Of a stretch of DNA of 64,000 nt, positions 22,020-58,260 are shown piece by piece. The position numbers and the translations under genes were made by a program. The stretch is from positions 3,232,001 to 3,296,000 of the forward strand of contig OZ241744.1 in the NCBI GenBank assembly GCA_965200965.1, given 5' to 3'. Below the pieces are notes generated by a model, which saw only the letters and a list, made by a program, of their open reading frames with translations, ran no database searches and had not been told where the DNA came from. The stretch comes from an uncultured Candidatus Binatia bacterium (GTDB lineage Bacteria; Desulfobacterota; Binatia; Bin18). The number at the start of each line of letters is the position of its first letter. The stretch's first letter is position 1.

Positions 22020-22048
22020 TTGCACAACCCTCACCCGGCTGTTAGGAT
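22020..22048 (+). promoter_or_regulatory. sigma70 promoter upstream of the hairpin element and tRNA-Ala(CGC)
   Basis: TTGCAC-17-TAGGAT with extended -10 TG. Confidence 0.65.
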
Positions 22049-22062
22049 CCAGGGCATCAATT

Positions 22063-22113
22063 GAAGGTAAATCGTCTCATCCGGTCGAGAGGAAAGCAAG
22101 ACGATTCACCTTT
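22063..22113 (+). repeat. Palindromic hairpin element, copy 1 (REP-like or structured RNA)
   Basis: AAGGT-A-AATCGTCT / AGACGATT-C-ACCTT stem around loop ATCCGGTCGAGAGGAAAGC; homologous to 57675-57723. Confidence 0.7.
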
Positions 22114-22115
22114 GT

Positions 22116-22169
<54 letters not shown>

Positions 22170-22188
<19 letters not shown>

Positions 22189-38498: not shown

Positions 38499-39137
38499 AT
38501 GAACGCCCACCACTTCATCAGAATTCACAACCAATCCCATCCCCTGGCTGCCGTGGCCTTTGACCTCGACAGCACGCTGACCAAACCGTATCTCGACTTT
38601 GCCAAACTGCGAGCTGAGCTGGGACTTGCCGACGGGGACATTCTTGACTGGCTGGGTCGGCTGCCGCCGGCTGAGCAAGAGCCGGCCAGGGCCATAATTG
38701 AAGCCTTTGAGCAGGATGGAGTGGAGCATGTGGAGTGGAATGACGGAGCGGAACACACCTTGCGCGCGGTGCAGGCGATGTCTTTGCCAGTGGCCATTAT
38801 TACCCGCAACAGTCGGACCTCGCTGCGGGCGGTGTGTCGTCAGCTCGGCATTCGGGTTGACCTCTTGGTCGCCCGGGAAGACGCGCCGCCAAAGCCCGAT
38901 CCGGCCGCCCTGCGTTTCGTCGCCCGACGGTTCGGAACTGGCCCGGAGTGTCTGGTAATGGTTGGCGACTTTCGGCATGACACCCAGGCTGGCCGAGCGG
39001 CCGGAGCCTGGACAGTCTTGCTCACTAATGGACGCGAGCCGTCCTGGCCGGTTGAGGCCGATATCCTCATTGAACGTCTGCCCGGGTTGCTCGGCTATCT
39101 TGGCTGGAAAGAGGAAACGGGACCTCCAACTCCCTGA
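38499..39137 (+). CDS. HAD family hydrolase
   Basis: FDLDSTL, TRN, KPDP, VGD...D..AG. Confidence 0.88.
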   Translation: MNAHHFIRIHNQSHPLAAVAFDLDSTLTKPYLDFAKLRAELGLADGDILDWLGRLPPAEQEPARAIIEAFEQDGVEHVEWNDGAEHTLRAVQAMSLPVAIITRNSRTSLRAVCRQLGIRVDLLVAREDAPPKPDPAALRFVARRFGTGPECLVMVGDFRHDTQAGRAAGAWTVLLTNGREPSWPVEADILIERLPGLLGYLGWKEETGPPTP

Positions 39138-39186
39138 AAACGCTGACACGTTTACTCTTTGTGAATGTCTTAGGAGGAAGAATACG

Positions 39187-57245: not shown

Positions 57246-57668
57246 ATAGCCCAAACGTGGCACGGGGCTTTTCGGCACACAATCCTGGAATCGGAATGAG
57301 GACAAAACCGTGTTCGTCGACGCTCATGGCTTGACCTCTTGCAATCGTATTCGTTCCTTAACGTTCCGGTCATGCTGCCAAAACAGCGCCTTGGCGAGCA
57401 CTTTCGGGTCCTCCGGCATAGGGTGGGGCAGAGTGCGTGCGCTTGGATTGTTTCGTGGTCTTCTCAGCCGCCATTTCCGTTCTCCTTCCCCTCTATTACA
57501 TGACTCGTGACGAGCATTTTTCCAGCGGGGCATAATTAATCATGCTTTGGTTCCCTGCTGATGTGTCTCCCATCATTGAGCCAAAAGATACGCATGTCGA
57601 TTCTCCTTATCAGAATGGTATGGCCGGCGGGGTCTTGGGTCTGGTGGTCTTCTTCGCTCGTACCATGT

Positions 57669-58007
57669 TCATTGAGGAGTGAACGTGTCGCCTTCCTCTC
57701 GATCTGATGACACGTTCACTCCTTTACTCCTGTCCTGTGTTGTCGTCCCGGTAGAGCTGTCCGCGGCCGTTTCGTTGTCCATGTAGGCACGCGCCGAGGA
57801 GAAGGATGAGACGCTGTAGGGGACGAGGAAGGTCAGCCCGATTTTGGCCAGTAAACGCGGCGAGAAGTCGAGGCTCAGCAGCACGTCATACTGGTTGATG
57901 AGGGTCAGGATCGGCCCGACGATGCCGGCGACCTTGAGTGCCCGCAGGACGGTCTCGCGGCGAAACAGGTGGTGGACAAAGCGACGCAGGGAACTGGCGT
58001 ACTGCAC
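57669..58007 (-). CDS. NrtS-family small membrane protein
   Basis: RALKVA.IVG.ILTLINQ and K..LTFLVPY.VS motifs. The C-terminal tail is derived from the hairpin repeat. Confidence 0.8.
   Translation of the reverse strand: MQYASSLRRFVHHLFRRETVLRALKVAGIVGPILTLINQYDVLLSLDFSPRLLAKIGLTFLVPYSVSSFSSARAYMDNETAADSSTGTTTQDRSKGVNVSSDREEGDTFTPQ
57675..57723 (-). repeat. Palindromic hairpin element, copy 2
   Basis: Perfect 15-bp inverted repeat AGGAGTGAACGTGTC/GACACGTTCACTCCT around a 19-nt loop (minus strand ATCAGATCGAGAGGAAGGC). Confidence 0.8.
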
Positions 58008-58260
58008 ACGAACGAGACAATCAGGCACGCAGCCATTTGTCCAGACATCGGCCCCCCAAGCGTTTGCCCGCCCGGGTGACTTCTACAGGAGGGAGAGGCA
58101 GCAATTGAGGATCACCAGCCAGACGATTCATACCAGTGCCGGGGCGGTGTGTAGGCGGAGCCGGCCCGCTCGTTGCCAGCCGCCTCGCTGCTCTATACCG
58201 CCGCTTGCCGTGGAGGTGCGGGGACCCGTTCCTGATTCAGCAGCTTCAGGCACAGGGTGT

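Follow-up and report, generated by a model that had tools for sequence, protein, structure and literature searches.

The leader of a tRNA-Ala gene in a Candidatus Binatia genome contains a hairpin of about 50 nt that has a counterpart elsewhere in the same 64-kb window (the whole stretch of DNA that was analysed), which raises the question of what kind of unit it is: a small structured RNA, a REP-like repeat or some other mobile DNA. Both hairpins, which the initial annotation had described, do exist and their 19-nt loops agree at 16 of 19 positions. The features of the window considered here, including a third copy, are listed in Table 1.

Table 1. Copies of the element and neighbouring host features in the 64-kb window
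Feature	Position	Strand	Remarks
Putative sigma-70 promoter of the tRNA, host feature	22020..22048	+	TTGCAC-17-TAGGAT, from sequence
Copy 1 of the 51-bp element	22063..22113	+	16-bp inverted arms, 19-nt core; tRNA-Ala leader
tRNA-Ala(CGC), host gene	22116..22188	+	Rfam tRNA match
Third copy, 53 bp, 54-bp type	39108..39160	-	Sole copy of that type found in G000
119-aa host ORF, C-terminus read through copy 2	57669..58028	-	No Pfam match
Copy 2 of the 51-bp element, nearest to the consensus	57674..57724	-	Last codons of the 119-aa ORF

A dispersed palindrome read as DNA or as RNA

To begin with, the genome containing the window (G000, 3.62 Mb) was searched for further copies, as had been proposed, using an iterated nucleotide profile, with which 104 copies reached E<0.01, compared to none in the reversed-genome control. 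Of those, 91 ungapped near-full-length copies were taken as the analysis set, while 13 gapped or partial ones were set aside. All 91 copies differ in sequence, and the unit consists of a 16-bp arm, a 19-nt core and a second 16-bp arm. Copy 2 was correctly placed on the minus strand by the initial annotation, although its true span is longer by one base at each end than 57675-57723. The C:G/G:C swap reported between the stems of copies 1 and 2 is real; the T:A pair thought to be inserted on both arms was an alignment choice, since both copies are 51 bp long and align without gaps. Their folding z-scores were -3.7 (copy 1) and -6.2 (copy 2). Moreover, copy 2 is also found at the orthologous site in the sister species G007, and site comparison showed the third copy to be partly deleted in G007 and missing from the relatives G004, G005 and G006. 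The 119-aa ORF that ends in copy 2 presumably resembles an NrtS-type small membrane protein, and short ORF remnants at 57320-57620 (-), just downstream of copy 2, resemble what we take to be small genes accompanying IS1595-type elements; no IS1595 transposase was found in G000.

The stem covariation that had been proposed from the two copies was confirmed in 55 aligned copies, in which 90.7% of the stem cells were paired and 13 of the 16 pairs changed on both sides, with observed values not reached in any of 500 shuffles, these counts being inflated by the relatedness of the copies. The covariation is real, yet by itself it is no sign of RNA. In an RNA stem, G·U would be expected in excess on one strand, whereas the stem mismatches here were G·T in 60 cases and A·C in 68 (p=0.54), with no G·U bias. 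Regarding orientation, the 59 copies outside gene interiors included 38 between co-oriented genes (17 sense, 21 antisense), 11 between convergent genes and 10 between divergent ones; inside genes, however, 25 copies were sense and 7 antisense, while open frames predict 60% sense (p=0.046), an excess that could be explained by peptide tolerance. The suggested Rfam scan matched no family to the element: only tRNAs passed the gathering threshold in the window, and in four loci the element itself drew no match at E<=5.

Copy 1 ends 2 nt before the tRNA, as had been noted. The promoter upstream of it, which had been called good, shows a -10-like hexamer kept at the same place in relatives, but it matches only 8 of 12 consensus bases and falls below the promoter-scan threshold. 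In G005 and G006, the distance from the -10 to the tRNA is shorter by exactly 51 bp than in the leader with copy 1, and the leader of G004 likewise lacks the element, while in G007 a reversed copy appears in the same leader, ~3 nt off the position of copy 1. A second G007 copy (L059, ~2700-2880) lies ~130 bp from the leader copy, upstream of the promoter. Within the species, copy 1 is kept in contigs of runs X2, X3 and X11, and contigs of a run labelled as a sponge metagenome (one study) span the locus with 1-2 differences over ~800 bp.

The initial reading as a functional small structured RNA, which RNase P would free from the tRNA leader and which might imitate the sarcin-ricin loop, can draw on the covarying stem, on the plausible promoter on one side and the tRNA on the other, and on the retention of copy 1 in conspecific strains. 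Nevertheless, it has to be considered extremely improbable, given that the leader lacks the element in three relatives and bears it reversed in a fourth, that the stem has no G·U bias, that the loop varies in relatives and that one third of the copies lie within coding sequence, using five of the six frames. Sarcin-ricin mimicry is not supported, as element positions 27 and 28 keep their G and A in just 53 and 55 of the 91 copies, respectively, and the loops of the 54-bp relatives are unrelated. The hairpin is very probably selfish mobile DNA, and the copy in the tRNA leader is most likely neutral; its transcription and its trimming with the leader would be merely a by-product.

Furthermore, the terminal bases of the element are mismatched by preference (A..C in 30 copies, G..T in 26, A..T in 18 and G..C in 4; p=2e-5). 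Reading the same ends on the other strand turns A..C into G..T, which means that about half of the A..C/G..T copies have their core flipped with respect to the ends. If joined, the element ends would read C|A in 56 of the 91 copies, while the target dinucleotides vary.

Insertion sites and copies inside genes

A total of 26 sites (10 + 16) were judged by eye against the orthologous loci of relatives, 18 of which showed an exact empty allele with the flanks joined directly, including sites of 42-, 50- and 53-bp variants. Among the other eight, three were consistent in net length and ambiguous by 1-3 nt, three were uninterpretable and two had no empty orthologue. One ambiguous site, at the stop codon of thrS, presented GAT on both sides of the copy. 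There was no systematic target-site duplication, as the flanks matched in at most 11 of the 91 copies at 2 bp and in 6 at 3 bp.

The target motif is one-sided: on one strand, a C stands four bases 5′ to the insertion point. Of the 91 targets, 85 had this C at -4 on one strand or both and only 22 on both, the two sides being anti-correlated (p=4e-5); for the 54-bp type, 113 sites gave the same anti-correlation (p=0.001). Pairing of -4 with +4 in a target hairpin was ruled out by the anti-correlation of the two sides. The target bias also reached +5 and +6 on the far side, and the motif showed no leading/lagging bias (29/63). In the flank profiles of the 91 copies, neither a conserved target dinucleotide nor a GTAG or CGTC tetranucleotide at the hairpin foot was observed.

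According to the uncurated gene calls of this analysis, 32 of the 91 copies were gene-internal, 22 overlapped a gene end or start and 37 were intergenic. Since gene interiors make up 66% of the genome, coding insertions are depleted (p=2e-9). Of the host and flanking ORFs, 69 were listed, of which 40 were searched against NCBIfam and 40 against Pfam in overlapping sets. In-frame copies were found in ThrS, MurJ, DnaX, MurF, AddA, a FabG-like reductase and a lytic transglycosylase, and multiple in-frame copies in the CCA-adding enzyme (two), a PhoR-like kinase (two) and Cas3 (three). In the alignment with Escherichia coli MurF, the insert appears as a gap of 18 residues; in the C-terminal 185 aa of ThrS modelled by AlphaFold2, it lies between the strands 134-139 and 162-166 with a pLDDT of 52-53, compared to 95 on either side. 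In 384 kb of G433, a carrier genome, the length was divisible by three in 13 of 14 coding copies versus 24 of 42 non-coding ones. At 51 and 54 bp, which correspond to 17 and 18 codons, copies would be able to persist within the surface loops of proteins, and the copies amount to a natural loop-insertion scan of essential proteins. Two further observations concern these genes. The cas3 gene at L019:3129-5942 (-) carries its three copies separately in an unbroken frame of 937 aa, and the PhoR-like kinase gene (L015:4147) has a 9-bp insertion in runs X3, X11 and X12 that is absent in G000 and X2.

Local spread and distribution among relatives

Copies are clustered along the genome, with 29 of the 90 gaps between them shorter than 3 kb versus 6.5 expected, and neighbours resemble each other. 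Those within 3 kb differed at 10.8 positions, compared to 15.9 for distant pairs (a difference reached in 0 of 10000 permutations), and for 21 of the 91 copies the closest sequence relative lay within 20 kb (null mean 3.2, maximum 12). In the case of copy 2626785, the site is empty in five relatives and the copy has derived letters in common with a neighbour 653 bp away. G007 has local subtypes of its own. Part of the resemblance between neighbours could come from gene conversion. Moreover, copies are enriched near dnaA (2.70 Mb), with 32 of 91 within 300 kb (KS p=3.5e-7), the cumulative GC-skew minimum of G000 being at 2.48 Mb; this enrichment may alternatively stem from older core DNA near the origin.

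Two other features of this genome were observed. Beside dnaA, at G000:C1:2702776-2702978, at least 12 perfect DnaA boxes form an unusually regular origin array, the first nine at a spacing of 11 bp, and the GC-skew minimum is found ~220 kb from this array. In addition, two regions of ~33 kb (G000:C1:271700-305600 and 1132400-1165300) contain large internal repeats with a period of ~2.5 kb and ~90% identity, and are probably giant repeat-protein genes.

Neither presence/absence polymorphism nor an element-sized deletion was detected in the contigs of five runs over two stretches, contigs being prone to drop rare variants. In run X11, a near-identical copy occurred on another contig, without an assigned position.

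A spread via an RNA copy and reverse transcription would agree with the stable hairpin, with the many copies in transcribed DNA and with the sense excess inside genes. This route seems very unlikely, as there is no strand bias in the stem mismatches or between co-oriented genes, the ends are blunt and exact, and copying is local rather than genome-wide.

The covariance model, with at most 108 candidates scored, matched 28 of the 55 genomes of the family, namely G000, 6 of the 7 other genomes of its genus (g1) and 21 of the 28 genomes of a second genus (g8), and none of the 19 genomes in eight other genera. Close relatives in one genus differed sharply, G004 having no match and G006 at least 85. 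No match was found in 132 genomes from other families of the class, nor in a phylum sample of 400 other genomes searched with the 51-bp pattern, and collection scans of viral contigs gave no element. In metagenomes, the 51-bp pattern found nothing, while a two-arm pattern matched 94 stretches; three outliers among these were checked and were unrelated to the element. Outside G000 and G007, the arms are nearly identical and the core is variable and 20-23 nt long, so that the 16-bp arms are the only part conserved between the two genera, the core of 19-23 nt varying freely. In 384 kb of G433, picked for density, 40 of the 64 copies are 54 bp long. With exact empty alleles, carriers and non-carriers in one genus, two length classes and a measurable target rule, a hunt for the mobiliser by gene-content comparison is feasible.

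Candidate mobilisers, mechanism and known systems

The search for a mobiliser covered PF01797/RAYT, TIRYT, IS1595, IS110, ISAzo13, DUF559, GIY-YIG and tyrosine recombinases. Neither G000 nor G007 yielded an HUH Y1 gene, the proposed RAYT- or IS200-type gene flanked by copies was not found in G000, and arms flanked none of the 30 fetched PF01797 loci or of 37 further loci (a subset of the family matches). By protein query, G000 has no TIRYT, and the TIRYT genes of the family have their own unrelated TIRs; the matches in the carriers G457 and G441 are truncated, the one in G457 ending in an unrelated TIR. IS110 was missing from G000, G007 and G433. For GIY-YIG, G000 and G007 gave one UvrC-sized match each, and none of 23 small-protein loci was flanked. 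The tyrosine recombinases found were two genes of XerC/D size. Furthermore, no multi-copy IS-sized repeat was present in G000 among the matches listed. In G433 and in metagenome loci, the genes lying between two close copies were housekeeping by eye, except for one DUF559 gene, among the matches listed.

DUF559 was rejected as the mobiliser, being absent in the carriers G000, G006, G007, G443 and G451 and present in the non-carriers G014 and G449. An element copy lay within ~1.5 kb in 6 of the 30 fetched DUF559 loci, and the g8 genomes showed insertions of the element into DUF559-associated repeats at two symmetric positions, each one base in from the foot of the hairpin. These repeats are read as targets, because DUF559 genes do not track the carriers. 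At L166:7190-8700 (G433), L380, L381 and L382, a DUF559 nuclease gene is flanked by its own family of hairpin repeats, with the element inserted at the hairpin foot. The four copies of L166 were probably amplified with the DUF559-type repeat, as their flanks are identical. IS1595-family elements apparently lie inside the same DUF559-type hairpin repeats at L396, L400 and L406.

The element could also be a minimal MITE with the arms as its terminal inverted repeats, mobilised by a DDE-type transposase whose target cuts are not staggered. That the 16-bp arms are kept across two genera while the 19-23 nt core is free to vary speaks for it, as does a target bias reaching +5 and +6 on the far side. 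We regard it as unlikely, as the element makes no target duplication and 51 bp leaves very little room for a two-ended complex. Moreover, no solo arm borders a transposase gene in G000, where 28 weak solo matches compare with 14 in the control, or lies beside one in the 384 kb of G433. IS1595 does not track the element and the IS1595 ends of 25 fetched loci bear no likeness to the arms, and ISAzo13 was not found in G000 or in the other 27 genomes searched of the two carrier genera.

With no candidate mobiliser tracking the element, a dedicated enzyme might be dispensable, the hairpin being copied by host replication or repair into nearby nicks or breaks through template switching. The clustered, locally similar copies enriched near dnaA would suit such a process, and so would the symmetrically placed g8 insertions, one base in from the foot of the DUF559-associated hairpins. 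However, the ends are base-exact at unrelated sites with no microhomology, the arm sequence is the same across genera, the target motif is specific, and close relatives contrast as sharply as G004 and G006, so that this possibility is judged quite unlikely.

With a confidence slightly above even, the 51-bp palindrome, with its ~100 copies and blunt insertion, is taken to be a likely non-autonomous selfish DNA, likely copied nearby, for which single-stranded hairpin transfer in trans is predicted. This mechanism fits best because of the exact blunt ends, the one-sided motif, the conserved arms, the occurrence in either orientation and the short-range copying. An enzyme would recognise the 16-bp arms, as suggested by their being the only part conserved between the genera; the hairpin would form on single-stranded DNA, be cut out or copied, and then be joined to a nearby single-stranded target, as in the chemistry of IS200/IS605 and REP. 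Template switching between the arms, rather than selection on RNA, may account for the arm covariation and the flipped core. The absence of an HUH gene in G000 and G007, of a fixed target dinucleotide and of a strand bias counts against hairpin-transfer chemistry, as TnpA-REP is described as cleaving fixed C|T or C|A sites (PMC8266576) and IS608-type elements as preferring the lagging-strand template (PMC6006769). Counted against the explanation as a whole were the sense excess inside genes, the sequence differences among all 91 copies and the lack of polymorphism in five runs. A more far-reaching reading, to which we give a rather low probability, is that the element represents a class of ultra-short mobile DNA with its own unrecognised chemistry, blunt, base-exact, local and with a one-sided target, whose enzyme would fall outside the usual transposase families or be the host replication machinery, and whose unit would step in codons (54 to 51 bp) and keep adding loops of 17-18 residues to essential proteins across two genera.

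In-frame palindromes are already known as a phenomenon. The Rickettsia palindromic elements (RPE) are described as dispersed palindromes with terminal inverted repeats, many of them in frame in unrelated conserved proteins and some associated with RNA genes, and their mobiliser as not established (Ogata et al. 2000, as reviewed in PMC10969869, PMC2229807 and PMC3184786). They work in the same manner as the present element, being multi-copy palindromes inserted in frame where orthologues have none, and also at RNA genes. They differ in measuring 105-146 bp and occurring in Rickettsia, compared to 51/54 bp in Candidatus Binatia, in two genera of one family; moreover, Table 1 of PMC2229807 lists their target duplication as unknown, whereas the exact blunt ends of the 51-bp element are known from empty sites. 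Judging from these descriptions, the 51/54-bp element is a smaller and separate family, RPE-like in kind and set apart from RPE by size and host range.

The bacterial MITEs Correia, ERIC and RUP, as presented in PMC2229807, are alike in being non-coding units with terminal inverted repeats and a variable core; the present element, unlike them, has no TA ends, no target-site duplication and no cognate IS found in G000 or, for five transposase families, in the parts of other genomes examined, and is half their size. Compared to TIRtrons, the inner end of the arm matches the TIRYT motif GGGGWSAS (PMC3733652; bioRxiv 10.1101/279083, subclass 2.1) at 6-7 of 8 positions, but this motif points the opposite way relative to the element ends and the TIRYT genes of the family have unrelated TIRs. 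The literature searched contained no description of the 51-/54-bp family, although a related TIR family may be present among the TIR sequences that accompany PMC3733652.

As for REP and REPIN-RAYT systems, the likeness lies in short palindromes of ~100 copies, sometimes in frame, and their HUH chemistry would insert without duplication, as described in PMC3733652 and PMC8266576; CGTC repeats are reported there (PMC3733652) without a dedicated transposase. The name of undescribed REP-like element given by the initial annotation held in that the repeat is palindromic, dispersed and covarying and matches no Rfam family, but not as regards the hallmarks of REPs: the element has no GTAG foot, no RAYT in G000 and no fixed C|T or C|A target, occurs as single units rather than dimers and is not concentrated downstream of genes. 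The RAYTs of relatives carry their own, different REPs rather than the 51-/54-bp element. Thus, L149, L150, L152 and L153 are ordinary RAYT genes of relatives with their own flanking repeats, which are of the GTAG type in L150, L152 and L153 and unrelated to the element.
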